Assembly (NCBI GenBank): GCA_024686575.1
Contig: GCA_024686575.1_4863.1
Direction: 5' to 3' (one strand)
From: a phage
DNA: 64,000 bases
Under the pieces are notes generated by a model. The model worked only from the letters and a program-made list of their open reading frames with translations. It searched no databases and was not told the DNA's origin. Both the position numbers and the translations under genes were made by a program. Below, one piece after another: positions 15,221 through 64,000 of this stretch. How positions within the stretch are numbered: position 1 is the stretch's first letter; each line of letters starts with the position of its first letter.

Positions 15221-15235
15221 AGATAATATCTATCT
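15221..15235 (-). promoter_or_regulatory. conserved motif 2 (plus AGATAATATCTATCT; inverted repeat AGATA-N5-TATCT)
   Basis: Exact 15-mer present four times in the window; here about 45 nt upstream of the ATG at 15181. Confidence 0.5.
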
Positions 15236-15286
15236 CAGATTACTTTGGGCACGGGTTCATACCCAGTGCCCGTAACGTAAAAAACT

Positions 15287-15985
15287 TTAGGGTATTAGGC
15301 GTTGGGCTATTTCGCGGAGTTGGTCGCGGGTTAAATCAGCCAACTTCTGGTCGCCGAAGCCCAACTTCAGACCCAGCTCGTACCCAGCTTGCGGATACGT
15401 GTTCGTGTTTGCTACTGAGAGGAGTGCATCGGCTATCTTTACCATCGTTAACTCGAGAGACGCATACGGGGCGGGGATCGGCTGATTCACGATTTGGTAA
15501 TTATAACGCACTGCGGCGTTATCGTAGTCAAACTCCATCCTTCTGCCGAGAACGTTAAACGACTCCGCAGAATAACTACCAAGTGGGTGATTGGCTTTTT
15601 CCCACAAATCTTTCCGTTCAGTAAACCCAGTCGCGAAGTTCTGACGTATGGTGTCGAATATTTGCGTTGCCTGGCTAGGGTGTATATTTTTCAGCTCATT
15701 GTAGTCGTAGTCGGCGATGGAATATAGAGTGAACACAACACCGTTTATATTTAACTGCGGATAATCCATCCGCAGACTGTCATCACCTTGTAAATGAAGT
15801 TCCCACATCCTTACCCACTGCAATATCGCGCTTACCGCATCGTGACTGAGATAAAAATTAGTAGGTTCTTCAGGATTTTCACGGAAGGGAACAGAGCATT
15901 CCGATACAAAAAAGCCGGCTGCCATAAATCCTCTGCCGTCGAACATAGGCGCAACTAATCTTGATTTTTCTAAATTGATTACCAT
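15287..15985 (-). CDS. hypothetical protein
   Basis: 232 aa; AAGGAG Shine-Dalgarno 8 nt upstream of ATG; preceded by the AGATAGATATTATCT motif and the terminator of the upstream gene. Confidence 0.7.
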   Translation of the reverse strand: MVINLEKSRLVAPMFDGRGFMAAGFFVSECSVPFRENPEEPTNFYLSHDAVSAILQWVRMWELHLQGDDSLRMDYPQLNINGVVFTLYSIADYDYNELKNIHPSQATQIFDTIRQNFATGFTERKDLWEKANHPLGSYSAESFNVLGRRMEFDYDNAAVRYNYQIVNQPIPAPYASLELTMVKIADALLSVANTNTYPQAGYELGLKLGFGDQKLADLTRDQLREIAQRLIP

Positions 15986-16025
15986 TACTGTCTCCTTAAG
16001 TTAAAACCGAACGACTCTCTCCCTA

Positions 16026-16040
16026 AGATAATATCTATCT
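16026..16040 (-). promoter_or_regulatory. conserved motif 2, copy downstream of the 766 aa gene terminator
   Basis: Exact 15-mer 41 nt upstream of the ATG at 15985, immediately after the terminator U-run. Confidence 0.5.
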
Positions 16041-22791: not shown

Positions 22792-22842
22792 GGCAATACT
22801 CCTTTAGATTAATAGTCGATTGAGTTGATAGATTGTCTTCTA

Positions 22843-22868
22843 TCACCTAGGTAATATATATCTGAAAT
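22843..22868 (-). promoter_or_regulatory. conserved promoter-like motif 1 (minus-strand reading contains TATATATTACCTAGGTGA)
   Basis: 26-nt exact repeat TCACCTAGGTAATATATATCTGAAAT shared with 31344-31369; lies between a terminator and the first gene of a small-gene operon. Confidence 0.55.
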
Positions 22869-23032: not shown

Positions 23033-23830
23033 TTACATCAAATCCAGGCTCTGTGAGACCGCAACTTCCGGTTCACTGATACCGCTGGTCACTGACAATG
23101 TAAAGCGACGATCGTTAATCACTTCAACTGCTTCGCTCGCACGCAGTGAATACTTGTCGGCGATTGGCAGTACACTGTTATCGTTCTGCGGCGGCAGAAT
23201 CTGTGCCGGGAACGGAATGTACGAGTTGAAAGTGATATACGGACCGACCTGCATCATCGGGAACACTTCGTTCACGTTATTTGACATCCCTTCATCCGAA
23301 GAGATAACGGAGTGACGCAGACAGGCACGCAGGCCAACGGTGTACTCCGGATCGCGCGATTCGCCGATCAGTGCGAAACGGAACACATTGAAATCGTAGT
23401 CGTCTGCAGCGAAGTGTTCTGGCAGGATACGCTGTACGTATTCAGGGTAAGTGGTCACGTCACCCGGAATAACATTCACGGCGAGTTTCTGTGCCAGGAA
23501 ATACGCATTCGCGAAACCATACTGACCCGCCAGCGCGGCTGAAATCGGTGCAGTGGTTACGCAGTGCAGGAACAAGTGATAACCCAGCCCGCCTTTATCT
23601 TCGATTGCCAGGTCCTTCTTACTCTGCACACCGTCAGCAGTATAAATAACTGCCACTGTCTTATCCAACGTCGACGCCATGACAAAATCCAACTGCACCT
23701 CACCGCTCTGCGGTAGTACCTTAACCAGACGATCCCAGAGCTTGGTCGGTTTGGTGAAGTTAGCGGCTTCGTACGCATCAATGTCGAGAACAGTTTGGCC
23801 GGTCATGCGAAAGGTGTGAATCGCTTTCAT
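23033..23830 (-). CDS. hypothetical protein
   Basis: 265 aa ORF; AAGGAA Shine-Dalgarno; terminator downstream. Confidence 0.7.
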   Translation of the reverse strand: MKAIHTFRMTGQTVLDIDAYEAANFTKPTKLWDRLVKVLPQSGEVQLDFVMASTLDKTVAVIYTADGVQSKKDLAIEDKGGLGYHLFLHCVTTAPISAALAGQYGFANAYFLAQKLAVNVIPGDVTTYPEYVQRILPEHFAADDYDFNVFRFALIGESRDPEYTVGLRACLRHSVISSDEGMSNNVNEVFPMMQVGPYITFNSYIPFPAQILPPQNDNSVLPIADKYSLRASEAVEVINDRRFTLSVTSGISEPEVAVSQSLDLM

Positions 23831-31343: not shown

Positions 31344-31369
31344 CTCACCTAGGTAATATATATCTGAAA
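31344..31369 (-). promoter_or_regulatory. conserved promoter-like motif 1, second copy
   Basis: Identical 26-mer, with partial conservation of the next 15 nt; located after the paralog-1 terminator and about 50 nt upstream of the ATG at 31302. Confidence 0.55.
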
Positions 31370-32775: not shown

Positions 32776-34053
32776 TTATGCTTTAGACTTTTCGTACGCG
32801 CCAATACCAGCGCCGATGTAGCCGTTCAGGCCGCTGATAACAGTGTTACCAACGTGAGCCACAGCACGGTTCAGAGTCTGGTAGTTACGCACAGCCTGGT
32901 CAGCTGCAGTGCGTGCATTACGCAGCGCTTCCCACTCGCCTTCGTCGTTGGATTTTTTCAGAGCGGCAGCAGCTTTGGCAGCAGCCTCTTCCAGTTTCTC
33001 AACGTCAGCGTCGTAGCTGCGGAAGTCTTGCAGGACTTTCTCGAAGCCTTTACCGATAACGTCCAGGGCAGACGCAGCAGATGCCAGTGCAGAAATAGCC
33101 GGAGTAGCGATTTCTTTCGTTTCAGAAACGTCACCCGTCGACAGGAAGGCCACTGCGGTGAATTCCTGACCGCCTGCCAGAGTTTTGGTGCCGGTCTGTA
33201 CATAGGCGTTGCCTGGCAGTGCCAGAACTTTCTGACCGCCTTCGCCGTCTTCGAATTGCGGCAGTGCGCGCAGTTTCTTCGCAGCGGTACCAAACAGGGC
33301 AACGTCAACAGCGCCTTTAGCAGCGGTTGCGGTACCGTCTGAAGTTTTGGTGATCGCTACAGCAGAGTCAGCCGCCTGAGAGGACAGCTTGTTGATAGCA
33401 TCTTTCGCTTTACCGCCGGTCAGCTCTTTCGCGATAGCGATAGAGTTGGCCACATCGAATTCACCTTCGATAGACAGTTTGCTAATAAAGCCACCAGAAA
33501 TGTTTTCTTTCTTCTGTTTGCCGAGCTTACGCAGCATCTCCTGGTAAGCTTTCGCACGTTTCTGCGCGGACTTACCAACGTTGATGTACTTCAGTTTCAG
33601 CTCTTTCGCTTTCGCGATAACTGCTTTACACAGTTCAACGAAGCGTTCGAACAGATCTTTCAGGGTTTCTTTCCAGCCTTCCTGAGCTGCTTTGGTCATG
33701 CCACGGCCACGGCGATAAGATTCGCGTGCCAGTTTGGTACGATCGATAGCCCAACGCTTACGGATAGATTCCTGCGCCACCTCGGTGTGAGCGATGGCTT
33801 CTTCAGGCATCTCTTCACCGTTTTCGATTTTTTCGTCAGCAGCGTCGATAGCAGCTTCGGTACGCTCGGTATCAGCAGCCAGAGTTTCCTGGTCACCATC
33901 GAGCTGTTCCAGCTGACCGTCGATAGACGCAACTTCTGCCAGCTGAACGTCGATGTTCTCTTCTGCCGGTTCAACGTTGCTCAGACCGTCGATTACGTCG
34001 CCGGTAGCTTCAACGGACTCGCGGGCGAGTTTACTTTTTACAAAGTTTGCCAT
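32776..34053 (-). CDS. abundant protein, paralog 2 of tandem pair (candidate head or scaffold-like structural protein)
   Basis: 425 aa; same N-terminal 15 residues and C-terminal motif as paralog 1; biased codon usage; AAAGGAA Shine-Dalgarno. Confidence 0.8.
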   Translation of the reverse strand: MANFVKSKLARESVEATGDVIDGLSNVEPAEENIDVQLAEVASIDGQLEQLDGDQETLAADTERTEAAIDAADEKIENGEEMPEEAIAHTEVAQESIRKRWAIDRTKLARESYRRGRGMTKAAQEGWKETLKDLFERFVELCKAVIAKAKELKLKYINVGKSAQKRAKAYQEMLRKLGKQKKENISGGFISKLSIEGEFDVANSIAIAKELTGGKAKDAINKLSSQAADSAVAITKTSDGTATAAKGAVDVALFGTAAKKLRALPQFEDGEGGQKVLALPGNAYVQTGTKTLAGGQEFTAVAFLSTGDVSETKEIATPAISALASAASALDVIGKGFEKVLQDFRSYDADVEKLEEAAAKAAAALKKSNDEGEWEALRNARTAADQAVRNYQTLNRAVAHVGNTVISGLNGYIGAGIGAYEKSKA

Positions 34054-34109
34054 TTGTTTCGGTTCCTTTGGTTATAACCCAATTACACGCCCCTAGATAA
34101 GGGGCCCCC

Positions 34110-34667
34110 TTAGGGACGTGCGATTTTTAAAAACACTGCTAACGACGAGATCATATCGGATAACCCGTTCGGACGTGTCAACCAACGTGCCAGCAGTTCG
34201 TGGTCTGCATAAGATAATAGACGCCGGTCAGGCGTGTACGTCTGATGCGCAGTTCCCATTTGGCGAACTTGCCCACTACGGCCGTAAGCCGCAGCAAGAA
34301 GTCGTGAGCCCAGGGAACCGGTTCGCTCTACTTGCTTGGTAGAGTGGATATCGTTCATGTACGATACCAGAAGAACGGACCACTGTCCTGTTGACACTGT
34401 ACGGCGTTTACCGTCAAGTATGAACGATGCAGTTTCGTTATAGAACGTATTAAACGTAAAACCGACCTGCGGATATTCGTCATATAATACTTGTTGGACA
34501 GAGTCAGCGCCCATCATGCGGAAATACGGCAGCACGACGGCTGCAGCTTCCAGGGTTTCATGTATCAGTTCGTCGTCATGAACCAGCACGGGGTTTTGGG
34601 TCAGTTTCGCCATGTAGTTTTTAATCAACTTCTCGGCGAGGTTAAAATTCTGGTCATTGTCAAACAT
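34110..34667 (-). CDS. hypothetical protein
   Basis: 185 aa ORF upstream of the paralog pair; structured GC-rich hairpin just downstream of stop. Confidence 0.65.
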   Translation of the reverse strand: MFDNDQNFNLAEKLIKNYMAKLTQNPVLVHDDELIHETLEAAAVVLPYFRMMGADSVQQVLYDEYPQVGFTFNTFYNETASFILDGKRRTVSTGQWSVLLVSYMNDIHSTKQVERTGSLGSRLLAAAYGRSGQVRQMGTAHQTYTPDRRLLSYADHELLARWLTRPNGLSDMISSLAVFLKIARP

Positions 34668-34690
34668 GAGACTCTCCTGATAATACGGCC

Positions 34691-35668
34691 TTAAACCAGA
34701 CCGTATTTTTTCTCCAGACGTTCACGTTTGTACTTGAGTTCCATCAAGCGCTTTTCGTGCGCTTCGATGAGTTTCTCAATGTGCACGTCCCCTTCACCGG
34801 CAGCCAGTTGTTTCTTGTACAACAGAATACGCAGTTCAGTCGCTTTCGCGGCTTCCACGCACTCGTCATAACGATCCATTTGCCATTCTGCAATATTCAG
34901 ACGCACGCGGTAGACGATCGACAGCGGGAACGGGACGGAGGACATGCCCAGCGGGTCAGTGGTGTTCGAACCGAACTGCTGAACCAATTGGCTATATGTC
35001 TCTTCGTCAAACACCGCTTCGGGTATCTCAGCGTAGTCTGCTTTCAGTTTGGTAATGGGGGTTGCCAGGACGCGCACCGCAATACAGAAAGACGTCTTAC
35101 GAGTTTGCAGATACTGAAGGTCTTTCGGACCGATTCCCTTCACTGCAATGTTCGAGTCTTGTACAGCGGCAATCTCTTCGGCCGTGATGTAGTTAATCAG
35201 GGTGCTAGCGTAACCGACGAAGAATTCGATCATATCCAGCAACTGCAACACGGTTTGTTTGTTGAACGTTAGAGATGATGTCACCAACGTCTTCCCGATG
35301 TCACGGTCGATACACTGCTCCAGGAAAGGTCGCAGCGCCTGTACGTTCTGCATAGACGCGATGACGTACTCCAGCATACTTGCGTTACGTAACCCTTTAA
35401 CTTCCAAACCGGAGCTATGCAGGTACTTAACGATTTCAGTAGAAAGGTCTGCAACAGGCTTCGCTTTAAATGGCTTACCCTGGATACTTCCTACCAGTTC
35501 CTGGAGGTTCTGGAACTGTGGCTCTAACGCAGCAATCGAGTCGCAGTTAGATGACAGTTGATTTTTTAAGTTGGTGGCTTCGAAGCTCGGCAGCAACATC
35601 GCCAACATATTCGGAATCGGCATTCTTTTCCCCTTACAGTACCGGATTCGCGCCAGCGCGATAGGCAT
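34691..35668 (-). CDS. hypothetical protein
   Basis: 325 aa ORF; C-terminal coiled-coil-like region. Confidence 0.7.
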   Translation of the reverse strand: MPIALARIRYCKGKRMPIPNMLAMLLPSFEATNLKNQLSSNCDSIAALEPQFQNLQELVGSIQGKPFKAKPVADLSTEIVKYLHSSGLEVKGLRNASMLEYVIASMQNVQALRPFLEQCIDRDIGKTLVTSSLTFNKQTVLQLLDMIEFFVGYASTLINYITAEEIAAVQDSNIAVKGIGPKDLQYLQTRKTSFCIAVRVLATPITKLKADYAEIPEAVFDEETYSQLVQQFGSNTTDPLGMSSVPFPLSIVYRVRLNIAEWQMDRYDECVEAAKATELRILLYKKQLAAGEGDVHIEKLIEAHEKRLMELKYKRERLEKKYGLV

Positions 35669-52278: not shown

Positions 52279-52662
52279 TTAACTTGCATCGTGTGGAACA
52301 GTCACCCAATCGTGCCATTTTTCAGAGTAAAGACGATAAGCCATCTTTGGATTCTGATCGACACTACCGGCCGGGTTCTCATTCCACAACACGTACGTAT
52401 ATAACTCGTACGACGAAGTGTTACGGATACTTGACGTGCGGGTGACGTAGTACGTCAACCCGCGTTGGTTAAGGAACAGGCCGCTGTAATGTTCAGTGAC
52501 CATGTAGTAGTGAAACGCCTGGTTGATAGTGGCGTCGGTACAGAGTTTCTTAGCGACGTCTTCTACGCCGGGATACGCCTTTAGAATGTTTTCGAGAAAA
52601 CTTGCTAAAGTCATTCCGATGTAGGGTGGCAGCGGCTCTGCTGGACGCGGCGGAGTGAGCAT
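52279..52662 (-). CDS. hypothetical protein
   Basis: 127 aa ORF with AAGGAA Shine-Dalgarno before ATG at 52662; overlaps the 3-prime end of the helicase ORF by about 113 nt in another frame. Confidence 0.5.
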   Translation of the reverse strand: MLTPPRPAEPLPPYIGMTLASFLENILKAYPGVEDVAKKLCTDATINQAFHYYMVTEHYSGLFLNQRGLTYYVTRTSSIRNTSSYELYTYVLWNENPAGSVDQNPKMAYRLYSEKWHDWVTVPHDAS

Positions 52663-55294
52663 GTGATTTCCTTACAACGTAGGGGGATGTCGCAATACGG
52701 AACGACAATACGACATCCTTGAGTGATTTCTGACGGGCATTCAGGTAATTGCAATGCTTCGGTACGTTATACGCATGGAATAACCACACCGTTGGGTCTA
52801 TTTCACCCCATTCGTTGTGGAGAATCTTACGTGGACGACCGGCCATCTGTTCGTTCAGTTGCTGGTCTTCTACCGGGGTTGAGATGTACATGTGTACCAA
52901 CCCAGGTTTATCGACCGCAGTCCCCGCTTTCCCCGGTGTGGAGATAGAGAAGTCTGCTTGGATAAAGTCGTCATACGAATCGCCTGCATTATATTTCGCC
53001 ACCATCAGTGGATGGAATACAGGGTCACGCGATAACTTATCTTTCACATACTCGGTAAAGAACTCACACATCGCTACCGTAGCAAAGAGTATCAAACATT
53101 TTTGGCCAGGCTGATACCGTTTAAGAAACGATTTCTCAACCACATCCCAGATCATGTTTGCGTATTCTAAATGCAAGTTCTCTTTAATCAGCTTCCCTTC
53201 GAAGAGCTTGTGGTTATACGGCGTCATCTTCGACGCCCACCACGCAAACTTCTTATCATCCAGTCGATAGTACAACGCCTTCACGTCAACCACCGGAATG
53301 ATTGGAATACTGATTCGGTACTCCATTGGGAAACGTTCTAAATACCGCTCCGCGATAAAGGCTTTACTGCTACCCGGCTTAAGAGTTGCAGACATCTCTA
53401 TCGATGCCGGCGGATTCAACATTATACCAGCCATGTAAACGAGGTGAAAATGCTCGTGCACCTCATCCATCGCCACCAGACCCACACCCAGAACATCATA
53501 AAACGTATCCAGGTCCACAGGGTTAGTCGCAGCAGTGTTAATGTACTCCTTCAGGAAACGCTGTAGAGAGACCGTGGGGAGGATTATTACCTTAATACCA
53601 CGACTATCTAGCTCTCCCGACTTACCCATCTCCAGTGCGTCGTAAATCGCCTGTACGCCTGTACAAACTAACACCTCGTCACGAAGTATACGAAGTCCTG
53701 TTTCATCATCACAGACGTCAAACAGCCATTTGGGAACGTACGACGGACGGTGAATCAATGCGGTACGGGTTCCCCGTTTAACCATCGACTTCATACAGGT
53801 CTTGGTGTTGTGCGTAACAATCCACTGTCCCAGAACGTACAGATGTTCATCGTTGTCGACAGTAATGCACGAACCATGACTCTTCCCAACATACACGATA
53901 GACTTAACACGGAGTTTCAGTGTATCGTTGTATTGACCGTTGTCGCGACACAGCGCTTTCTTACGCGGGAGGTTGAACAGCATTGAAGGTGTCTTGTGCC
54001 TAATGAACACCATATAAGCCAATTTACCTTCTCTACGTTCTCCTTTGTAAGTAAAGAACGGACGTTTTGTGGATATAGTTGCAATACCACCTAACGATCT
54101 CACCAACTCCTGGACGCCCAACGCCAGCGACTCGCTGGTGCTACAATACGACGGCTGCCCTCCATCTTTATTCACGGTTCCGTCCGTGTCCATTAAACCG
54201 CGCAGCAGCTCCCAGCGTTGCTCAATCGAGCCTTCAAAATATTCATCCGGAATATATTTTCTATCAGACCCTTTCCCTAGAAGACCGTGGTCCTGCAAAT
54301 AGAGCGGCCAGGACATCGGCACTTCACGTCTGCGACGACGCATTCTATACTGATAACGATCGGCGGGAACCATCTCGGTATCGTCAGGTAAATACTTCCT
54401 CACCAGCTCGACAGTTTCTGGATCGGCTGATGTGAAGCCTACCGCGCCATTTTCACAGGCGTGGCCGTTTCCCAAGAATGCCCCCATGAGATACGGATGT
54501 ATTTTAAAGCACTTTTCACTTGTCTCTTCCGGTTCAGGTAACGGAATGTAGACTCGCGGGTTCGGCATTGCAATCAGTCGCTGAATTTCTTCCGTACTTC
54601 TTACCTGCCACCGAGTGTTTGGTGTGGTATTGACGTAGTAGGATTGCCAGAGATGCTCTTTACCGACCACAGTCTTACGTCCGTCAGCAAAAGTTATCTC
54701 GTAAAAATCCCAATCTTCATGCGGGTACACCGCCGTCACATTCGTCGGCTTCCCATCCCTACCGATTACCACATCCCCGACTTCTAGCTCTCCATGTAAT
54801 TTCCACCCACCAGGAATCCTTACACGCTGATCCCATCTACAGACCTTTCCTCTTCCTGTTTGTATCGCGAAAACCGTTTGTGAACGCGATGGATCTGTTG
54901 CGGCGGCTACGACTTCATTCTGATAATAGAAACGCGACTCTGGGTCTGTTTCTTCCATCTTGAATCCGTAATTATCAAACGTGCACTTATAAGGTTCTGC
55001 ACGTTCAGGATGGTGCTCTGTTAGCTTGTACTGAAAAGCGTATTCAATTGCTGCTCGTTGGAGGATATGTTTAATCTTCTCAGCGAACACTTTATGGAAA
55101 ATGAACGTCCTTAAAGACGGAATGTGAGCGTAGTACGCGTCACCGCGTTCCGTAGTTATTCGTCCATGTTGCTTGCCCATCTTTGGGGCGTGCATATTCT
55201 CTTCGGCCCACGCGAGTATGGCCCTTTCAGCCTGGCGGATAGGGACTTCAACCCGTACCCCCATACTCGTGTAAGTCATTTGAATTTCTACCAT
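52550..55294 (-). CDS. DExH-box (SF2-type) helicase/ATPase interrupted by an intein
   Basis: 914 aa from ATG at 55294 (GAGG Shine-Dalgarno; track N-terminal extension rejected); Walker-A-like AIQTGRGKV, motif II AMDEVHEH, motif III SAT; about 345 aa intein inserted after GRGKV. Confidence 0.75.
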   Translation of the reverse strand: MVEIQMTYTSMGVRVEVPIRQAERAILAWAEENMHAPKMGKQHGRITTERGDAYYAHIPSLRTFIFHKVFAEKIKHILQRAAIEYAFQYKLTEHHPERAEPYKCTFDNYGFKMEETDPESRFYYQNEVVAAATDPSRSQTVFAIQTGRGKVCRWDQRVRIPGGWKLHGELEVGDVVIGRDGKPTNVTAVYPHEDWDFYEITFADGRKTVVGKEHLWQSYYVNTTPNTRWQVRSTEEIQRLIAMPNPRVYIPLPEPEETSEKCFKIHPYLMGAFLGNGHACENGAVGFTSADPETVELVRKYLPDDTEMVPADRYQYRMRRRRREVPMSWPLYLQDHGLLGKGSDRKYIPDEYFEGSIEQRWELLRGLMDTDGTVNKDGGQPSYCSTSESLALGVQELVRSLGGIATISTKRPFFTYKGERREGKLAYMVFIRHKTPSMLFNLPRKKALCRDNGQYNDTLKLRVKSIVYVGKSHGSCITVDNDEHLYVLGQWIVTHNTKTCMKSMVKRGTRTALIHRPSYVPKWLFDVCDDETGLRILRDEVLVCTGVQAIYDALEMGKSGELDSRGIKVIILPTVSLQRFLKEYINTAATNPVDLDTFYDVLGVGLVAMDEVHEHFHLVYMAGIMLNPPASIEMSATLKPGSSKAFIAERYLERFPMEYRISIPIIPVVDVKALYYRLDDKKFAWWASKMTPYNHKLFEGKLIKENLHLEYANMIWDVVEKSFLKRYQPGQKCLILFATVAMCEFFTEYVKDKLSRDPVFHPLMVAKYNAGDSYDDFIQADFSISTPGKAGTAVDKPGLVHMYISTPVEDQQLNEQMAGRPRKILHNEWGEIDPTVWLFHAYNVPKHCNYLNARQKSLKDVVLSFRIATSPYVVRKSHAHSAASSRAAATLHRNDFSKFSRKHSKGVSRRRRRR
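53807..54841 (-). mobile_element. intein with LAGLIDADG homing-endonuclease domain
   Basis: Starts with Cys after the P-loop and ends VLGQWIVTHN followed by Thr; LAGLIDADG-like motifs YLMGAFLGNGHA and LLRGLMDTDGTV; in frame within the helicase ORF. Confidence 0.7.
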
Positions 55295-55304
55295 GCTGCC
55301 CCTC

Positions 55305-55337
55305 TTCGCACAAAAAAAGAGGGGCGCAAGGCCCCTC
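55305..55337 (-). terminator. rho-independent terminator or attenuator between RNAP genes and helicase gene
   Basis: Stem GAGGGGC/GCCCCTC followed on minus strand by TTTTTTTGTG; helicase Shine-Dalgarno and ATG follow within about 12 nt. Confidence 0.65.
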
Positions 55338-55340
55338 GGT

Positions 55341-57446
55341 TTACAACTCAATTACCACAGCGGCTCCTAGGTCATCGTACAACGATGCCGGGATTTTGTA
55401 CTCGGTATAAAAACCAACGCGATCGATATTCCCCTGCTGTCCTTCAAACAACAACATCGGAATTGCCGAGCGCAAACTAATGAGCGTGTTGTGATCGACA
55501 AACCGTTTCCCTGTAGCGTTAGTAGAATCCTCACTGTCAAATCCTACTGCCGGGAACGGATTGGTTGGCGACTCTACACGAGATATCGCCAACATAATCG
55601 CAATGTGCGTCATCGGTATACCACTCAGCTTACGCTGGATATACTTAAACGTGTCCATCAACGCATAAGTACACTGTTTCTCTGTAGCACCACCCATTTC
55701 AACCAACGTCACCGGTTTCACACGACCTTGTTTCTTGTTCAGCTTCACAGTCGAGGCTGTGTTGATGATTTCCACAATGTCTTCGTTCTTATCGGCAGCA
55801 ATCGAACGGAGCTTGGTTTCTAAGCCGGCTACGAACTCCGCCATCGATTCAGAACGGTTGGTGTAGACCAGGACCGGGTGTTTCGGGTTCCATCCTTTTA
55901 AGGGGATTTCTACCGTCTTCTTCTCGATACGAATGTTCGCTCGTTGTTTCAAGAAGTAGTGCAGGAACGGTTTAGAGAAGTTCCCACAAACACCCATTCG
56001 CACATCGATAGAATCCGCAGCGATTATCTGCCCATCTTCTAAACGACGTTGGAAAGTTAAGTCGGTGATTTCTGGTAATGCCGTTTCATCAATTGCATCG
56101 AGATCTTCATGATACGCAATCTGGCTCAGCTCCGAATAAACTTTGTCGGTAACAACCAACTCGTATTCTGACCAATTCCCACGCTGTGGTTTTGGCAGCA
56201 AGCACAACCCTTTCAGAGAGTTATGTTTGTATTCGGTCATATACTCACGCATACGTGGGGTGAGTACCAGGTTGAGCAGATAACGCAAGAAGTCAAGGTG
56301 CTTGGTAGAGAGAATTCCCTGTGTACCCTTTTCCGAGATGGACGTGGATGCCAGGTGACCTGGTGACGTACCTTCAGAGAGGTTATAAATCAAATCCCCC
56401 ATACAGGTCGCACAGATGGACTGATTCGCCATCTCTTTACAGGTCATGGCACTACGGAAGACCAGCGGTTTGCCAACCAGGTCTGCGTATCCGCCTTTCT
56501 CAAATCGCAACCACGGACCATTATCGCCTTCTAAACGATAACGCATCCCCACCATCGCTTTATAGGCACGCTCATCCAGCTGCGTATCCTTAAACGTGTA
56601 GCGGTGTGCGTGTGTTGTACCGCAGTCGTCGTACGTGAAATACATCAGTACGTTTGCTGCCAGCTGCAGTTTACGTGAGGCGTATTCTGCTTCGGCAATC
56701 TTGTCAGTGTTGTACAGGTGGGAACGTGAAGTTGCACCAGATTCTTTCAAACGCGAAATAACCGAATGCATTCCGGTAAAGAAGCCTTCCCACACCTGAT
56801 TGGTGTATACACGTGAGTCAATTTCTGACGTTTTGCCGCGCACGAACGCTTGCAGTACCTGGTTCATCTTCACGGTACCGTCCAGTACCGACATTACGAC
56901 TGGGTTATACCGCAGCGCAGGGTCTTTGAAGATTTTCTCGATAAGCTTATACGCTTCTTCAACCATATCCTGACCATCTTCATCGTAGCCAGTAGGATAC
57001 TGCACTTCCCACTGACGGATGAGTTCGAAGTTCGGGTGGTCGTAGATCTCCATCATCGTATCAAAGTCGATTGTCGTACAATAGGACAGCAAGTTCTTCA
57101 CTGTCATGTTGAACGCATCGGCGTAGACATGTTGACTCAGGATATAACGCGTTTCAGCAAGGTCGACACCTGCTTTACGGGCCAGTACCGCTGCTTCCGA
57201 CATAAAGTCCAGATGCAGGTCATCTGTTGCTACCTGACCTGGACGATACGCCATGGTCGATGGAGTGGGCACCTGCGGATACAGACGCGACACACCCCAA
57301 TACGGCCAGCTGAGTTTGATGTGGCGACTAGACATTTCCAACGACTTACCATCGTCGAAAGTCACGTAATAACGCCCGCGTAGTTTCCACACCTGATCAG
57401 AGTTAAGCATACGCAAATCACGTACGTGTACAGAACGACCCGCCAT
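55341..57446 (-). CDS. multisubunit RNA polymerase beta-prime-like subunit, C-terminal part
   Basis: 701 aa; ASTSISEKGTQGILSTKH matches the beta-prime trigger-loop signature AAQSIGEPGTQLTMRTFH; preceded by a Cys cluster (C-x8-C-x2-C) as in the C-terminal Zn site of beta-prime. Confidence 0.7.
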   Translation of the reverse strand: MAGRSVHVRDLRMLNSDQVWKLRGRYYVTFDDGKSLEMSSRHIKLSWPYWGVSRLYPQVPTPSTMAYRPGQVATDDLHLDFMSEAAVLARKAGVDLAETRYILSQHVYADAFNMTVKNLLSYCTTIDFDTMMEIYDHPNFELIRQWEVQYPTGYDEDGQDMVEEAYKLIEKIFKDPALRYNPVVMSVLDGTVKMNQVLQAFVRGKTSEIDSRVYTNQVWEGFFTGMHSVISRLKESGATSRSHLYNTDKIAEAEYASRKLQLAANVLMYFTYDDCGTTHAHRYTFKDTQLDERAYKAMVGMRYRLEGDNGPWLRFEKGGYADLVGKPLVFRSAMTCKEMANQSICATCMGDLIYNLSEGTSPGHLASTSISEKGTQGILSTKHLDFLRYLLNLVLTPRMREYMTEYKHNSLKGLCLLPKPQRGNWSEYELVVTDKVYSELSQIAYHEDLDAIDETALPEITDLTFQRRLEDGQIIAADSIDVRMGVCGNFSKPFLHYFLKQRANIRIEKKTVEIPLKGWNPKHPVLVYTNRSESMAEFVAGLETKLRSIAADKNEDIVEIINTASTVKLNKKQGRVKPVTLVEMGGATEKQCTYALMDTFKYIQRKLSGIPMTHIAIMLAISRVESPTNPFPAVGFDSEDSTNATGKRFVDHNTLISLRSAIPMLLFEGQQGNIDRVGFYTEYKIPASLYDDLGAAVVIEL

Positions 57447-59683
57447 TATTTATCCTCCCGAATTGGACGCACTAATTCAAAACCTTCACAGCGATGGATG
57501 TTACGTATCATCCTGTCAATCTGCGAATCACCCATTGGCAGTTTCTTACGATCGACCAGCACCCCTGGATTGGTTGGTGTTGGCGAGTTATACAGCCCCG
57601 TTACGATCGCACGGTGTACCGCAGGGTTATTAGCGCGGTCATGAGTTTCGGGGAAGTTGCCCGGACCAAAGCCGTCGGTAAGACGCTGCTCGGAAGGACC
57701 ACCCCACTTCAACCCTTTCAGGTTAATCGGATATGAACCACGTCCTTGGTTGGATGCATCAATACAACCCAAATAGTTCGTGTACATCGACGAGATACTG
57801 GAGAACTCACGACCGGTTTTATCCAGGCGCAGAGTCTCTACCATGCCGACGTAAAACTGGTTCTTCGTCCACTCTTTCTCACCCTGATAGTTAGTAATCA
57901 GTAGCTTAGACTTGCGTGGTGCATACTCGCCTAGAGCACGGCAGATTTCTACCTGGGTAGCATTCAATTCGTGGGGAAGCCAGATACGAATCGTGAAGTC
58001 GTAAATCTCTTTAAAGAGTTCCAGACGTGACCCAGTATCCGGGTGACTGGCATTGAGATAGAATGTCCAGCGTGGGTTATAGCGATCGATATAGTCCATC
58101 AGGATTTCCCAGGCTTCATCAACCTGGTTGGCGGCAAGTAAAGGTTTCAACCGCATCTTCAACTGCTCGGATGCAGCAGACCAATACATGTGGAACAGCG
58201 CAGCATAAGTCGAACGACGAATTACGGCGTTCATGGAACGAATGACATGCACACGTTCTCCGAACTCGTTAATCGGCATTTCTTCATCAGGCCGCACTGC
58301 GCCCACGATACCTTTTGTACCTGAACGGTCGGTGATTTTCGATGAGACGGTAACTGGGATTGGATAACGTACCACGATGCGTATCGTGTAACTACCAATT
58401 GGGTCCCAGAGACCACGCTGAACCGGCTGCGCCAGTTTGTTTAACACGTTCTTATCAGCAGAACGGTTATACTCGCCTTTACGCATGGCTTCATCGTATT
58501 CACGACCAATCTCTTCACGGAAGTCGTTATAGACTTCATACGTCTCAGAACAGAACGCCTTGTCAAGAATCTCAAACGCTTTCGGTGACCAGACGATATT
58601 CTTGTCCTTGGACATCGCAAAATAGAACCGTACGATATCATTGTAAAAACGTTTCAAAGCGTTCGCGTAGTGATCTAACTCGCGTTTGTTCTCTTCGGTA
58701 CATGCGATATTGTTAACACCACGATCGCATTTGGTTTCGTCCCGCCATACCTGAATATCAACGACACGAGAACCGGTACGTTCCATCTTTTCAAAGTCGC
58801 CAGCCAGTCGCGCTTTGTAATGCTCAGGGTCGGCATCAACATACTCACAACGGTCGAAGTGCGGAGAGACATGTTGTGTTTCACCTACGTGCGAGTCAAT
58901 GGCTGCCCATAGCTTATCGAAACGGCGCGCGGCAATAACCAACCCATCATCACGAATTGCCTGTCCTTTATTGGGCAGGTACTGTGGTCGACGAACGCCA
59001 TCAATACCCGTTGTCCCATACGTATCAAGCAGGTACTCGTCGTCGCGCAAGGTAAAGTCGATTGCACGCAAACCATAAGCGTGCATCGCTTTCGCTGCAG
59101 TTTCGGAGATGGTGTACGAGTCCTCGATAATGTCCGGGTGCGACATCGTCACGGTGTGCAGGTTGACCCCATCGACAAACTCACCGTCTTTCTGTGCCGG
59201 CAGCACGGTAAGCATTTCATCTTTTTCCAGGTGCTGCGTCTGCCCGCGCAGCAACGCCTGAAGTTTCCCAGTAGCCTCTTTCTTAGACGAGAAAATGTTA
59301 TCGTGGTTGGTGTAATACTTAATATCGATTACATCAATCATCACTTTGCGCTGGTTGGTTAAATCTGCGCGCGTGAAGAAGATAACATGTTGGAGCGGTT
59401 CGTGATCCCCTTCACGACCATAGCGTGCAAAAACAGCTGCACGAGTAACACCTTCTTTGGTTGTGTAACTGCACACGGTACCACTGTCTTCCACGATATC
59501 GTTAAAACAATAATCGTGGTAGTTCACATCAGCGCCGGTAAAATGGATAGTCGGATCTGGATTGTCCAGTGGTACCGCCGACTTCATATGTCCACCCACC
59601 ATTGAGGCACGTGCCCCAGATACGCCAGTGATATTCACCTCACGGTCAGCAACGCTTGACATGAGTTCGACTGGTGTTTTCAT
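57446..59683 (-). CDS. multisubunit RNA polymerase beta-like subunit, C-terminal part
   Basis: 745 aa; ITDRSGTKGIVGAVRPDEEMP matches the beta signature [20 protein letters not shown]; C-terminal GGPSEQRLTDGFG resembles GGQRFGEMEVWA; stop overlaps the start of the beta-prime-like gene. Confidence 0.7.
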   Translation of the reverse strand: MKTPVELMSSVADREVNITGVSGARASMVGGHMKSAVPLDNPDPTIHFTGADVNYHDYCFNDIVEDSGTVCSYTTKEGVTRAAVFARYGREGDHEPLQHVIFFTRADLTNQRKVMIDVIDIKYYTNHDNIFSSKKEATGKLQALLRGQTQHLEKDEMLTVLPAQKDGEFVDGVNLHTVTMSHPDIIEDSYTISETAAKAMHAYGLRAIDFTLRDDEYLLDTYGTTGIDGVRRPQYLPNKGQAIRDDGLVIAARRFDKLWAAIDSHVGETQHVSPHFDRCEYVDADPEHYKARLAGDFEKMERTGSRVVDIQVWRDETKCDRGVNNIACTEENKRELDHYANALKRFYNDIVRFYFAMSKDKNIVWSPKAFEILDKAFCSETYEVYNDFREEIGREYDEAMRKGEYNRSADKNVLNKLAQPVQRGLWDPIGSYTIRIVVRYPIPVTVSSKITDRSGTKGIVGAVRPDEEMPINEFGERVHVIRSMNAVIRRSTYAALFHMYWSAASEQLKMRLKPLLAANQVDEAWEILMDYIDRYNPRWTFYLNASHPDTGSRLELFKEIYDFTIRIWLPHELNATQVEICRALGEYAPRKSKLLITNYQGEKEWTKNQFYVGMVETLRLDKTGREFSSISSMYTNYLGCIDASNQGRGSYPINLKGLKWGGPSEQRLTDGFGPGNFPETHDRANNPAVHRAIVTGLYNSPTPTNPGVLVDRKKLPMGDSQIDRMIRNIHRCEGFELVRPIREDK

Positions 59684-59713
59684 TCGTAAATGCTCCTTTT
59701 GGTTACCTCGGTA

Positions 59714-59728
59714 AGATAATATCTATCT
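59714..59728. promoter_or_regulatory. conserved motif 2 in divergent intergenic region
   Basis: Exact 15-mer between the RNAP beta-like gene start (59683) and the plus gene start (59750); could serve either or both. Confidence 0.5.
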
Positions 59729-59749
59729 GTTTTATTTTAAGGAGAGACG

Positions 59750-60073
59750 ATGCTAGATAAATTTGCTACCTTATCCGAAATAATACCTTCGCCTGATTCG
59801 ACCAAGTATAAGGTGTTGCATGACTATACAGACTTCCTTCGCAAACACCCAGATACTACAGAAGAAGTTGTTGACCCAAAATATGCCTACCCAGAGGTAC
59901 ACAGTTTCTACGCGTACTGTCGTCTCAAACAGTACGATAATAGTATTATTTATCCGATGATGTTAATGAACGGAATTTCTACTCCGTTCGATTTCACGCC
60001 AGAGATAAGAACCTTATTGGTTCCTAGTGTCGGTGTGGTAAGTAACATCTTATCGACTATCGTAGAATCTTGA
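59750..60073 (+). CDS. hypothetical protein
   Basis: 107 aa ORF; AAGGAGAG Shine-Dalgarno; the AGATAATATCTATCT motif lies 21 nt upstream; bidirectional terminator after stop. Confidence 0.65.
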   Translation: MLDKFATLSEIIPSPDSTKYKVLHDYTDFLRKHPDTTEEVVDPKYAYPEVHSFYAYCRLKQYDNSIIYPMMLMNGISTPFDFTPEIRTLLVPSVGVVSNILSTIVES

Positions 60074-60105
60074 AAAAAAGAAGGGACGCCCAGTCCCTTC
60101 TTTCT
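60072..60105. terminator. bidirectional terminator
   Basis: Stem GAAGGGAC/GTCCCTTC with A-run upstream and short T-run downstream, between convergent genes. Confidence 0.65.
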
Positions 60106-60110
60106 AACGC

Positions 60111-61478
60111 TTAACGTAAATTAGCTGATGAGAATGGTAGGTTGCCTAAACTGCTGCTACTTCCGCCACCTAAACCACCCAGACCACCTAACACGTCACT
60201 ACTCCCTCCTAAGAGGTTGGTGCTACCGCCGCCCAACTGCGTGCTACCCCCCAAGAGATTATTACTACTTCCCAGCAAACCAGAACCCAGACCACTTTCT
60301 TTCGTCACCGCATTACCACGCAGCGCTTCACCGAGAGACAGTTCTTTAATTGTCCCTTTCGGTAAATGGCCGTTGTTCTCACGCAGCGCTTCCTGAATCT
60401 TCGGTGCTAACGCATTGAAGCTATTAGCCGAAGACGCCTGTTGCGCTTTCTTCGCACGGAAATAGTTTACCGGATCATTGAGATCAAGATTTTCCTGCGG
60501 AGCTTGTTGAGAAGCTAAAGCAACGACCGGCTTTGTGCCGGCAGGTGTACGCCCGATACGGAAATCTGTTGCGGTGGTGTCTGTTGCCTGATCGTTACGT
60601 GGGCCGGTATTATACGGCAGAGTTTGGATAACGTTATCATAAACGCTCATGTTATCCAGTTGGCCAATCCATTCTTCTTCTAACGGACGCAGTGGAGTGT
60701 GGTCACGCAGACCACGAACCACTTGATTGTAGTTGGTCACGTATTGTGCCCAACCGCGTGCCAAAGAACCGAAGTACGGACGCGGATCGTTAGAACCAGT
60801 AACCGAAGGATACCAACCAAACACTGCAGTTAGCAGGTTAAAGATAATGACCTTATCCTGCTTACGCTGGAGCTTGGCACCGAAGAATGTTGCCGTACCA
60901 TCCAGTGACTCTTCTTCAAACATGTGTTTGTAGTTCGCCACGCGGATATATTTGATACCCTCAATGGTCATATCGCTGGAGATGAAGATACTGGTGATCT
61001 TTGTCTTTTTATCTTCTTCCAGCAAACCGTAAACATAGTTCTTCACCGCTTGCCAGCTCTGAACCAGTTTCTTATCCATCGTCGGATCTTTCAGGTCAGC
61101 ACAAACCACATCGCTTAAAAACTTCTTGTAAGCTGCCAGACGGATATTCTTTCCTTCGGCTGCTGTTTCCAAAATAGCATCGATTAGCTCGAAGCTTTTC
61201 AGGAAGAGGTTCGCGTTGATGGCTTTCTTCAGGAAGCGAATCGTTCCAGATTCGCCAGCCAGTACCGATTCACACAGTGGGTGGAACGCATGACACTCAC
61301 TACCTTCATCGTCTTCCAACCCACGCTTAATCATCGCTGCAGTTGGAAGCACCAAGCGGCGCTTCACTTTGTTGTAGGTGAACATTGCTGGATGACCATC
61401 ATCGATAGTCAGCATGTCACCTTCGAATCCGTATCCGAGAGAGGTCAGAAACGAACGGTAGAATTCAATCAATTTCAT
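60111..61478 (-). CDS. hypothetical protein with Gly/Leu/Ser-rich C-terminal tail
   Basis: 455 aa; C-terminus LGSGLLGSSNNLLGGSTQLGGGSTNLLGGSSDVLGGLGGLGGGSSSSLG; terminator downstream. Confidence 0.7.
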   Translation of the reverse strand: MKLIEFYRSFLTSLGYGFEGDMLTIDDGHPAMFTYNKVKRRLVLPTAAMIKRGLEDDEGSECHAFHPLCESVLAGESGTIRFLKKAINANLFLKSFELIDAILETAAEGKNIRLAAYKKFLSDVVCADLKDPTMDKKLVQSWQAVKNYVYGLLEEDKKTKITSIFISSDMTIEGIKYIRVANYKHMFEEESLDGTATFFGAKLQRKQDKVIIFNLLTAVFGWYPSVTGSNDPRPYFGSLARGWAQYVTNYNQVVRGLRDHTPLRPLEEEWIGQLDNMSVYDNVIQTLPYNTGPRNDQATDTTATDFRIGRTPAGTKPVVALASQQAPQENLDLNDPVNYFRAKKAQQASSANSFNALAPKIQEALRENNGHLPKGTIKELSLGEALRGNAVTKESGLGSGLLGSSNNLLGGSTQLGGGSTNLLGGSSDVLGGLGGLGGGSSSSLGNLPFSSANLR

Positions 61479-61490
61479 GGTTAATAATCC

Positions 61491-63191
61491 TTAATCAATG
61501 AGACCGTTGCCGAGTCCGTTTCCGCCTATACCGCCTAAGCCACCACCCAGGTCAAGACCTCCAAGAGGATCTAAGCCACCTGTGTTAGTTGGAATGTTAG
61601 ATAGCATTCGACCCCGGCCTTGGCCTTTCTCGAATTCTGTATAACCTTCTTCCACGGCTTTCAGCAGCGTTGCAGTGTTCTGTGCCAGCTCACCAACGTA
61701 TTTGAGATCGGTGGTGTTGCCGGTATGGAGACGGAATTGCATAAACGACGCGTAGGTGTAATATTCCAGCGGTTCGTCGTCGACACGGATTTCAATACGA
61801 GTAACGGTCCCCAACAATGCGGTGACCAGCATGTGACAGCGAATATGGTTATGTTTAGTAACCTGAACCATCGCTTCTTTCATGTTCTGCAAGAAACGAC
61901 GACCTAATGCAGCAGGTAACTGATGATGTGTGATGCTGCTGACTGAGTTAGGAATAACTTCCAACGTAGGCTCTATCATGATATCCGTGTTACGGTTATC
62001 AAAGACAAAGCTCACTTCGCCAATCAGGTTACGTGACATAATCGGCCCGATAGACATAGCCAGATCATACGCAACTAGACTACCCTGAGTAGAAAAGCCG
62101 TTACGTCCAATCCAGTGGTCGGTTTGGTTAACCAGCCCTGCACCCAACCCACGGCGACTTGCCAGCGCCAGCGATTCACGGATACATTCATCCAACCGCA
62201 TTGGGTTGACAATCGCATTACGCAAATCAGCCAAACGGAACGTCGCCTTACTGGTTGCTTTCCAACCGCCAGATACATCAGACATCCCGTTCTGGAGTGC
62301 TTGACGCATCGCAGCAATCAGTTCGTGGTTGCTGTAGTTACGGATAACACCACGCTGCTTCAATTCAGATTCAACGCCGATGGAGTTATTACCTGCAAAG
62401 AAGCTTTCCACGCTACCGAGTTCGGTATCTACCCCAGAGCTTGCCAGATACGCATTACTGATTGCAGATACGTAGTTTTCCGGACGCTGGAGTTGGGATA
62501 CCATCAACTGTGGTGCAGAGCTACTGGTTGCGGATAGCACAGAGTCGCTCGTTGGAACGAACTTCTCACCGCTATTCATTTCAATACGTTTTACCATATC
62601 CGCTGCTTTCGCGATCGAAATGATATCTACCGTACTTTCTGTTTGACCTTCAACAGACAGCGCTTTCGATAAAACGTAGTTATCCAGTAGACGGAATGAG
62701 TCTGGGTTCAATGTTTTGCCGCCCAGGGCATCGTGTGTATACGTTGCCTGTAAGCCGTAGATGTCGTTAATGTACAACACCATATCGTCCGGCAGCAGGC
62801 TACCCAGGCTGGTTTCTGCCTGACTGGTATAACCGGAGACGATGTATTGCGTTTCCTGAGTGCGTGTTGCATTCAGAGGTTTAGCAATAAACACCGCCAC
62901 GAAGTTAAAGATACCGGTATCACGTGATTCCCATTGGAACTGTACAGGACGATTGTCATCATCGGACACGTTGATGAATGGACGCTCAAAACCGTTCTGG
63001 GTGCCATCGAAGCCCACGATGGCAGATAATGCTTCTTGATACTGCTGTGTTCCCACAGCTTTTTCCCCGCCCAGTTCAACCGCTGCTGCTAAGTCATCCA
63101 GTGCACCCGTCGATGCGTTAAAGCCGATGCGGCGACGAACTTGCTCTGGAACATCGTAGACCGGATACATCAGTAGATTTACAAGCTGCAT
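61491..63191 (-). CDS. hypothetical protein with Gly/Leu-rich C-terminal tail
   Basis: 566 aa; AAGGAG Shine-Dalgarno 9 nt upstream; C-terminus GGLDPLGGLDLGGGLGGIGGNGLGNGLID. Confidence 0.7.
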   Translation of the reverse strand: MQLVNLLMYPVYDVPEQVRRRIGFNASTGALDDLAAAVELGGEKAVGTQQYQEALSAIVGFDGTQNGFERPFINVSDDDNRPVQFQWESRDTGIFNFVAVFIAKPLNATRTQETQYIVSGYTSQAETSLGSLLPDDMVLYINDIYGLQATYTHDALGGKTLNPDSFRLLDNYVLSKALSVEGQTESTVDIISIAKAADMVKRIEMNSGEKFVPTSDSVLSATSSSAPQLMVSQLQRPENYVSAISNAYLASSGVDTELGSVESFFAGNNSIGVESELKQRGVIRNYSNHELIAAMRQALQNGMSDVSGGWKATSKATFRLADLRNAIVNPMRLDECIRESLALASRRGLGAGLVNQTDHWIGRNGFSTQGSLVAYDLAMSIGPIMSRNLIGEVSFVFDNRNTDIMIEPTLEVIPNSVSSITHHQLPAALGRRFLQNMKEAMVQVTKHNHIRCHMLVTALLGTVTRIEIRVDDEPLEYYTYASFMQFRLHTGNTTDLKYVGELAQNTATLLKAVEEGYTEFEKGQGRGRMLSNIPTNTGGLDPLGGLDLGGGLGGIGGNGLGNGLID

Positions 63192-63203
63192 TTTAAATAC
63201 TCC

Positions 63204-64000
63204 TTAAGAATTAAACCATTCAACTTCTTCTAACTTGCGACGTGCATTCAACACCATAAACTCCGCCAGGCTATTGTGCAGTGACAAGTGAGGTATATAG
63301 TTTGGCTGATCCGTCTCACACTTCAGCAGCGCAGCTGCTTCTGGTGTAGCCCTGAGATGGAACAGATACGGGTTGATGTGATCCTTGTGTAACAAGGTCA
63401 GTGATTCCCGTGGTGTAGATTGCGGTTCGAGATTACGCGGGTTGCGATACTCCTGAAGATAATATCTATCTAAATCTGCTTTGAGTTCAGATCGAATTGG
63501 GTCGGCTGCATAACCGGCAGACATCTCAGAACGCACCATATTGCAACTTAACAGTTGCGCAACGTCATACATTCCATAATTGAGATAAGTTGCCTGTGCT
63601 AACGCCATGCCGTAGCGAAACGCTTCTGGTCCACATTCGGTATACGTCTTATAATGCGCGCTACGATGGAGTGCTAATGCGACTAACCATTCGTGGAGCG
63701 TATAGACAGGACCGTCGTGTGTTGCCAGTTGCGAATCAATCAATAACTTAACATCTGCTGGAGCGGCATTATCCAGGCGCATTGTTTTCAAGAAAGAGCG
63801 GTATTCTTTAAATACGTACTCGGTACGGACGTATTCTTTCATCTGGGCAGGAGAACGTGCCTGCACCAAATCCATGGCGTTTATCTTACCCTTTTCGCCA
63901 TTGAATATCACACTTTCTGGATGCGCTTTTAACAGCACCGGCTGGTTAGAGATTTTGTTTGCAAAACCTGTTTCAATCTCTTGTTTAACCAGAAAATACA
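63204..64000 (-). CDS. hypothetical protein, 5-prime partial (continues beyond window end)
   Basis: Track ORF starts at a GTG at 63938, but the frame stays open to the window end; contains an internal copy of the AGATAGATATTATCT motif. Confidence 0.55.
   Translation of the reverse strand, partial: YFLVKQEIETGFANKISNQPVLLKAHPESVIFNGEKGKINAMDLVQARSPAQMKEYVRTEYVFKEYRSFLKTMRLDNAAPADVKLLIDSQLATHDGPVYTLHEWLVALALHRSAHYKTYTECGPEAFRYGMALAQATYLNYGMYDVAQLLSCNMVRSEMSAGYAADPIRSELKADLDRYYLQEYRNPRNLEPQSTPRESLTLLHKDHINPYLFHLRATPEAAALLKCETDQPNYIPHLSLHNSLAEFMVLNARRKLEEVEWFNS
63457..63471 (-). promoter_or_regulatory. conserved motif 2, intragenic copy
   Basis: Exact 15-mer inside the coding sequence of 63204-64000 (encodes DRYYL), about 270 nt upstream of the next gene start at 63191. 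Confidence 0.35.

Follow-up and report, generated by a model that had tools for sequence, protein, structure and literature searches.

We report that a 15-nucleotide (nt) sequence element inside a protein-coding gene of a Salmonella jumbo phage is probably a working, conserved internal early promoter of the class recognised by virion-packed RNA polymerases (RNAP). The element, AGATAGATATTATCT, lies on the minus strand at positions 63457-63471 of a 64-kb stretch of phage DNA (GenBank assembly GCA_024686575.1, contig GCA_024686575.1_4863.1; hereafter the window), which covers, in reverse-complement orientation, the left part of the genome of a Salmonella jumbo phage of the SPN3US type (genus Seoulvirus). 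Between 59 and 64 kb, the window is 99.1% identical to the SPN3US genome (NC_027402). The gene that carries the element, referred to here as the host gene, is related to gp68 of phage phiKZ; it is followed by genes related to phiKZ gp69 (PicA/Imp1) and gp70.

As stated in a preliminary description of this DNA, the window contains four exact copies of AGATAGATATTATCT, and all of them are on the minus strand (Table 1). None of 100 dinucleotide-preserving shuffles contained an exact copy (0/100), so that approximately zero would be expected by chance. The variant AGATATATATTACCT accounts for two more copies. Five of these six copies are intergenic, at about 30-70 nt 5' of a minus-strand start codon, and most are preceded by a hairpin and/or an A/T-rich run; the copy at 63457 alone is within coding sequence. 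It stands in frame in a minus-strand open reading frame (ORF) that has its stop end at 63204 and is truncated by the window boundary at 64000. The codons at the site, (TT)A GAT AGA TAT TAT CT(T), read L-D-R-Y-Y-L, in agreement with the DRYYL peptide that the preliminary description had placed there. The ATG of the next gene, at 63191, is 266 nt from the 3' end of the copy and 280 nt from its 5' end, which brackets the earlier estimate of about 270 nt. That description had proposed either an internal promoter for the downstream genes with glycine-rich tails or a regulatory site that lies within codons; the evidence presented here supports this proposal and favours the promoter.

The whole SPN3US genome holds about 23 members of the motif family, every one of which is on the coding strand of the gene immediately 3' of it. 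All are intergenic, with the exception of the intragenic copy and one copy that overlaps a stop codon. The extended consensus of the family is AAaaaaTTTC-AGATAGATATTATCT-a.GTGA. Among 21 intergenic copies in SPN3US, the most informative flank position (1.6 bits) is a G located exactly 6 nt past ATATTAY, i.e., 5 nt beyond the 15-mer, and this G is also present at the intragenic copy (window 63452). The element and its spacing in this clade can be written as AGATAKATATTAY-(6N)-G. Upstream of the intragenic core, the sequence tcAAAgcagaTTT is a partial match to the AAaaaaTTTC of the intergenic copies. When only the flanks were scored with a position weight matrix (PWM), the intragenic site reached the 99.5th percentile of random genome positions, yet it stood at the bottom of the intergenic range; with the full PWM it scored 22.5 bits, where intergenic copies ranged from 16.8 to 50.3 bits in a leave-one-out analysis. 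An extra divergent promoter-like copy, GGATATATGTTATCA, which was overlooked by a 3-mismatch search, is found at SPN3US 238181, 5' of gp003, and scored 27.6 bits by PWM.

This architecture matches that of early promoters mapped in other jumbo phages. The AR9 early promoters, AAATATATATTAT-(6N)-G(+1), were mapped by differential RNA sequencing and primer extension and are chloramphenicol-insensitive (PMC5312081), and the transcription start sites (TSS) of phiKZ and phiR1-37 likewise lie 6 nt past the element (PMC5312081). According to a review, an AT-rich motif centred near -10 precedes the early operons in every RNAP-encoding jumbo phage (PMC7598289). Early promoters of phiKZ, for which 28-32 sites have been described, combine an AT-rich element that has an extended -10-like box with T-rich sequence upstream of -19 (PMC8244752, PMC10914365). 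Between AR9 and the SPN3US clade, AAATATATATTAT and AGATAKATATTAY are alike at 11 of 13 positions and share the 6-nt spacing to a G start, and in both cases the non-virion RNAP genes belong to the early operons that such promoters precede. The two systems differ in that AR9 has a Bacillus host and uracil DNA and belongs to another phage lineage, and in that the AR9 promoters are mapped whereas those of the SPN3US clade are predicted.

Copies of the motif stand 5' of non-virion RNAP genes at window position 59714 and at SPN3US positions 23810, 28969, and 15614/15707. The genes that follow them are the gp68-like gene, the RNAP beta-like genes, and those of the gp244/gp243 block. Every copy has the orientation of its downstream gene, including the intragenic one, which points towards the PicA-like gene 266 nt 3' of it. 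Ceyssens et al. (2014) reportedly idealised the phiKZ early-promoter core as TATATTAC. This string is contained in the window variant AGATATATATTACCT and also lies 41 nt 5' of phiKZ gp68, homologous in position to the SPN3US promoter at 23810; we take it to be phiKZ's own early element at that place. We favour a promoter over a generic regulatory site because every copy faces its downstream gene, because the motif matches the early-promoter architecture of AR9, phiKZ, and phiR1-37 including the G six bases past the element, and because copies precede non-virion RNAP genes. The latter must be read by the virion enzyme, since their own product cannot transcribe them at the start of infection.

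The orthologous locus was compared in nine cultured relatives (STsAS, pEa_SNUABM_29, phiEaH2, Asesino, pEa_SNUABM_10, ChrisDB, Kwan, CR5, and Phobos), whose proteins range from 84% down to 37% identity to the SPN3US host protein. Sixteen IMG/VR contigs were added, of which 11 are additional genomes, bringing the related genomes examined to 21. Allowing for promoter-like variants, the core is kept in 21 of 21 genomes, down to 37% protein identity. As in SPN3US, the locus of each of the nine relatives has three sites: one 5' of the gp68-like gene, one inside this gene about 270 nt before its end, and one 5' of the RNAP beta-like gene. The intragenic site and a copy 5' of the gene were both found in all contigs (16/16).

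Conservation at the intragenic site exceeds what the encoded peptide would demand. The sequence GAT AGA TAT TAT C (GATAGATATTATC) is nucleotide-identical in all DRYY-encoding phages of the ten-genome set (8/8), which span four genera and amino-acid identities down to 47%. No invariant run in the 1.6-kb codon alignment is longer than these 13 nt, and the runner-up has 5 nt. A single codon is kept in only 15 of the 131 amino-acid-invariant degenerate columns (11%), and the consecutive D, R, Y, and Y make up four of these. In large SPN3US genes, AGA represents 3.1% of the Arg codons. A DRYY peptide would be written with these four codons with a probability of 0.0027, and CGN was used in every other DRY or RYY peptide that was sampled from large genes (12/12). 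Outside the core, the upstream Lys codon is AAA in every ortholog, and the base at the predicted +1 is invariably G, the first base of a codon whose amino acid varies between E, A, and D. Taken across the aligned codons, this pattern demonstrates purifying selection on the intragenic site at the nucleotide level. The preliminary description had asked whether orthologs keep the motif despite their synonymous freedom, and had named the same peptide in different codons as evidence to the contrary; the motif is kept in the eight DRYY phages and the 16 contigs, and no CGN- or TAC-coded DRYY occurs among the 21 genomes.

Where the core does change, the protein changes with it. Derbicusvirus has ATATATGTTATC at its intergenic sites and (A/C)ATATATTATC inside the gene, with an R to I change. 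Two contigs (L023 and L035) carry GATAGATTTTATC inside the gene, with a Y to F change, and their own upstream promoter has the same A-to-T variant. The core changes match or move towards the promoter variants of the respective phages, at an amino-acid cost to the protein.

Nucleotide conservation shows a function at the DNA or RNA level without saying which, and the motif might therefore be the binding site of another DNA-binding protein, such as a repressor, an activator, or a genome organiser, with the intragenic copy serving as an operator, roadblock, or pause site. The near-palindrome AGATA-N5-TATCT, which has 5-nt inverted arms within the 15-mer, would suit a dimer, and the intragenic copy of Erskinevirus, GGATA-GATAT-TATCC, is again palindromic. 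However, the inverted arms are lost in the common variant AGATATATATTACCT and in several intergenic copies of relatives, e.g., gaaATAGATATTATCatc in Kwan. Moreover, the approximately 23 SPN3US copies share one orientation to the downstream gene, which a symmetric operator would not need, and the flanks are asymmetric (an A/T run on the upstream side, a G exactly 6 nt beyond the element), as in mapped virion-RNAP promoters. We thus consider a binding site for another protein unlikely.

It is quite unlikely that the intragenic copy is a relic or junction of module exchange, in which promoter copies would provide short homologies for cassette swapping and the intragenic copy would mark an old recombination joint with no transcriptional role now. 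Promoter-flanked cassettes do vary, as illustrated by a 232-amino-acid (aa) gene between two copies that is missing from SPN3US, where the copies are 198 nt apart. Nevertheless, a relic would decay, whereas the 13-nt core is invariant on a near-saturated synonymous background (11% of codons identical). The codons flanking the site differ between genera, which excludes recent segment transfer, and all relatives, even those without the site, are collinear in gene order and in the gp68-like gene itself.

Finally, a coincidence of protein constraint and codon choice, in which DRYY would be required and its codons kept for translation (e.g., AGA as a rare-codon pause), is highly improbable and largely refuted: although Y450 and Y451 are invariant in the clade, D448 is nearly so, and AGA is a rare codon, the four codons are common to several saturated lineages despite P = 0.0027 per lineage, distant homologs have E/D-x-Y-P-H at the corresponding place and D-R-Y is therefore not a requirement of the protein or its fold, substitutions among these very residues (R to I, Y to F) keep or approach promoter variants, an exact 15-mer equal to the intergenic promoter is expected about zero times by chance, and a pause codon leaves the invariant upstream AAA and the invariant downstream G unexplained.

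Other identities of the motif were rejected. A scan for host sigma-70 promoters (-35 TTGACA, -10 TATAAT, 16-18 nt apart) of window positions 59500-64000 and the SPN3US locus yielded counts equal to the shuffle expectation and no sigma-70 site at the motif, and the motif copies are without a -35-like element; this rules against a host sigma-70 promoter. The motif as a terminator or known RNA family was likewise dismissed, as an intrinsic-terminator scan of the same two regions gave nothing above the shuffle expectation and Rfam returned no family match at or above the gathering score in the whole window.

Considering the genes involved, the host protein and phiKZ gp68 are both in phrog_3209. 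BLASTP of the host protein against phiKZ gp68 gave E=2e-13, and the host-protein profile matched the PDB chains named PHIKZ068 in structures of the phiKZ non-virion RNAP (7OGP, 7OGR, 8QUE) with E=2e-17. The protein of the first downstream gene (566 aa; 6.6e-157) and phiKZ gp69 (2.7e-179) both belong to phrog_3141. A BLASTP comparison of these two proteins was not significant, and the 566-aa protein is a PicA/Imp1 (gp69) homolog at the level of profiles and synteny. The second downstream protein (455 aa) shares phrog_3520 with phiKZ gp70, with 25% identity by BLASTP (E=4e-13). SPN3US and phiKZ also share the gene order SbcD, gp66, gp67, gp68, gp69, gp70, followed by the RNAP beta-like genes (phiKZ gp71-74). 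By these sequence comparisons, the host gene is a homolog of phiKZ gp68. Of the phiKZ counterparts, gp68 serves as the fifth subunit of the non-virion RNAP, gp67 corresponds to Imp6, the essential gp69 (PicA/Imp1) is an import factor associated with the nuclear shell, and gp70 is an uncharacterised protein that localises to the nucleus (PMC11087766; bioRxiv 10.1101/2024.03.27.586873). In the window, the ATG of the PicA-like gene is preceded, at seven bases, by a strong ribosome-binding site (AAGGAG).

The proteins encoded downstream of the site have unusual C-terminal ends. All members of the gp70 family end in a low-complexity tail (60111-60400 in the window), the composition of which varies with the lineage. 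LGG repeats characterise the lineages of SPN3US, phiEaH2, and Kwan; the tail is NPF/G-rich in CR5, Met/Gln/Pro-rich in phiKZ, Arg/Asp-rich in a Vibrio phage, and Pro/Gln-rich in Eowyn. Among the PicA-like proteins, a G/L-rich tail is present in SPN3US and phiEaH2 (window 61491-61600), and Kwan has a far shorter stretch of this kind. That proteins of a phage-nucleus import locus should end in a disordered tail is possibly of interest.

From the sequence, we infer initiation at the intragenic site, the start base, the polymerase, and the timing as follows. The virion-packed RNAP, co-injected with the DNA, would bind AGATAGATATTATCT early in infection. The site is placed in the last sixth of the gp68-like subunit gene of the second, non-virion RNAP, and transcription would start at the G six bases past ...ATATTAT, which is window position 63452 on the minus strand and corresponds to NC_027402 position 25245. 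The predicted transcript begins with a leader of about 261 nt from the 3' end of the host gene and continues through the PicA/Imp1 homolog and then the gp70 homolog. The PicA-like and gp70-like genes would in this way be transcribed twice, i.e., by read-through from the promoter 5' of the gp68-like gene and from the internal promoter, with the PicA-like gene as its presumed main target. The effect would be to raise the PicA/gp70 message above the gp68-like message, or to put it under separate control. The junction between the host gene and the PicA-like gene measures only about 11-40 nt in every relative, which may be why the promoter is written into codons; a promoter within coding sequence would in turn explain why the protein carries D-R-Y-Y.

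The terminator scan detected no terminator-like site on the sense strand between the upstream promoter and the PicA-like gene. Therefore, the internal promoter would add to read-through and would not replace it, and we rejected a role in restarting transcription after a terminator. Expression of a short C-terminal isoform of the host protein was also rejected, given that the sole downstream in-frame Met lies 18 codons short of the stop and is preceded by a poor ribosome-binding site.

Several observations weigh against a functional internal promoter. A promoter already exists 76 nt 5' of the host gene, with no terminator between it and the downstream genes, so that an internal promoter is not strictly needed. 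At about 261 nt, the predicted leader far exceeds the 30-70 nt found at the intergenic copies. The full PWM score of 22.5 bits is the lowest among the credible sites, and the flanks of the intragenic core are only partly consensus, with GGAG in place of GTGA after the core and a partial A/T run upstream. Because these flanks match the consensus only in part, the intragenic promoter may be weak; the AR9 virion RNAP is reportedly sensitive to some deviations from the consensus (PMC5312081). In addition, the co-variation between the upstream and intragenic sites is not strict, since contig L024 and the pEa_SNUABM_10 group have the T variant upstream and the A variant inside the gene. The literature searched contained neither a transcriptome nor a mapped TSS for SPN3US or its clade.

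The distribution of the site also has its limits. No intragenic copy was found in the gp68-like genes of phiKZ, Klebsiella phage Eowyn, Vibrio phage pVp-JHP1101, and Erwinia phage pEa_SNUABM_54, which likewise counts against the promoter. Each of these four phages has its own early motif 5' of the gp68-like gene, and Eowyn, pVp-JHP1101, and pEa_SNUABM_54, but not phiKZ, also have it 5' of the RNAP beta-like gene. Judged by its presence and absence in these genomes, the internal site is an innovation of the SPN3US/Erwinia-phage clade. With phiKZ, this clade shares the locus layout gp67-gp68-gp69-gp70-gp71..74; it differs from phiKZ in its intragenic promoter, as phiKZ gp68 is without an early element at the corresponding place.

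Neither this class of promoter nor the concept of an internal promoter is new. A precedent in AR9 is the early promoter of g190, which lies inside an intron of the late gene g189 (PMC5312081). In contrast to this intronic promoter, the candidate of the SPN3US clade lies in translated codons. The site also resembles the class of internal TSS that differential RNA sequencing has revealed in phage and bacterial operons (PMC8244752), in which a promoter in an upstream gene provides an extra transcript for downstream cistrons. That class is defined by mapped RNA ends, whereas the evidence here consists of nucleotide conservation and of host-protein changes that track promoter variants. No report of the motif string or of the internal site was found in the literature searched, and a search with the motif string returned only unrelated papers. 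On balance, but with less assurance than for the promoter itself, we lean towards a fuller reading of the comparative data: a virion-RNAP promoter has been held in the gp68-like reading frame across at least five genera, would give the import genes their own early transcript, and would dictate part of the protein sequence (DRYY, R to I, Y to F).

If correct, this adds an early transcription unit for the essential import factor PicA/Imp1 and its gp70-like neighbour in the SPN3US/Erwinia jumbo-phage clade, and possibly a point at which the balance between import machinery and polymerase is controlled. Mutation, deletion, or recoding of the 3' end of the gp68-like gene could then alter PicA expression, and knock-down or complementation work on the locus should reckon with an internal start. 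The AR9/phiKZ early-promoter rule of an AT-rich element, six bases, and a G would extend to the SPN3US clade. Because synonymous sites are conserved and amino-acid changes track promoter variants, the site offers a compact example of overlapping constraint, with promoter and reading frame on the same 15 bases, and it would be a clean natural case of promoter-protein co-evolution.

Table 1 Features of the window that relate to the candidate intragenic promoter, the other motif copies, and the surrounding genes
Feature	Position	Strand	Remark
Candidate intragenic early-promoter core AGATAGATATTATCT	63457..63471	-	exact match; core kept in relatives
Predicted transcription start, G (+1)	63452	-	six bases past ...ATATTAT; inferred from sequence
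A/T-rich upstream flank tcAAAgcagaTTT, including Lys codon AAA 63480-63482	63472..63490	-	flank PWM score
Host gene, 3' part, truncated by window end	63204..64000	-	SPN3US ACQ60_gp236 (535 aa); phiKZ gp68 homolog
First downstream gene, 566 aa, Gly/Leu-rich C-terminal tail	61491..63191	-	phiKZ gp69 (PicA/Imp1) homolog
Second downstream gene, 455 aa, LGG-repeat C-terminal tail	60111..61478	-	phiKZ gp70 homolog
Exact promoter copy, 30 nt 5' of non-virion RNAP beta-like gene (57446-59683)	59714..59728	-
Exact intergenic copy	15221..15235	-
Exact intergenic copy, 5' of variable 232-aa gene 15287-15985	16026..16040	-
Intergenic variant copy AGATATATATTACCT	22849..22863	-
Intergenic variant copy AGATATATATTACCT	31351..31365	-

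The 232-aa gene at 15287-15985 on the minus strand (phrog_15414, function not known) is flanked by two exact promoter copies, and the region 15221-16040 looks like a promoter-flanked variable cassette. The gene is absent from SPN3US, in which only the 198 nt mentioned above separate the two copies, and is present in most other Seoulvirus isolates (SPLA3, SEGD1, SPFM series). At this site, Proteus phage 7 and MET_P1_082_240 carry another insert, which is of comparable length.

A second short motif, (C/T)AATCGACTATT, was observed in the 5' leaders of several genes, usually after a small hairpin and about 10-20 nt before the ribosome-binding site. It is found at SPN3US positions 23830, 65454, 94279, 167591, and 223317, four of which are just 3' of an early promoter copy (the exception being 167591), and at 22811-22821 in the window; within the window alone, its occurrence is not above chance. 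Seoulvirus and Erskinevirus share a conserved leader of the gp68-like gene, gcaatcgactattcgcggag. At 52550-55351 on the minus strand, the window has an ORF of 933 aa where the SPN3US annotation gives a 568-aa 'DNA helicase' (33403-35109) and a short overlapping gene; the start codon or the gene model may differ here between the strain and the annotation.

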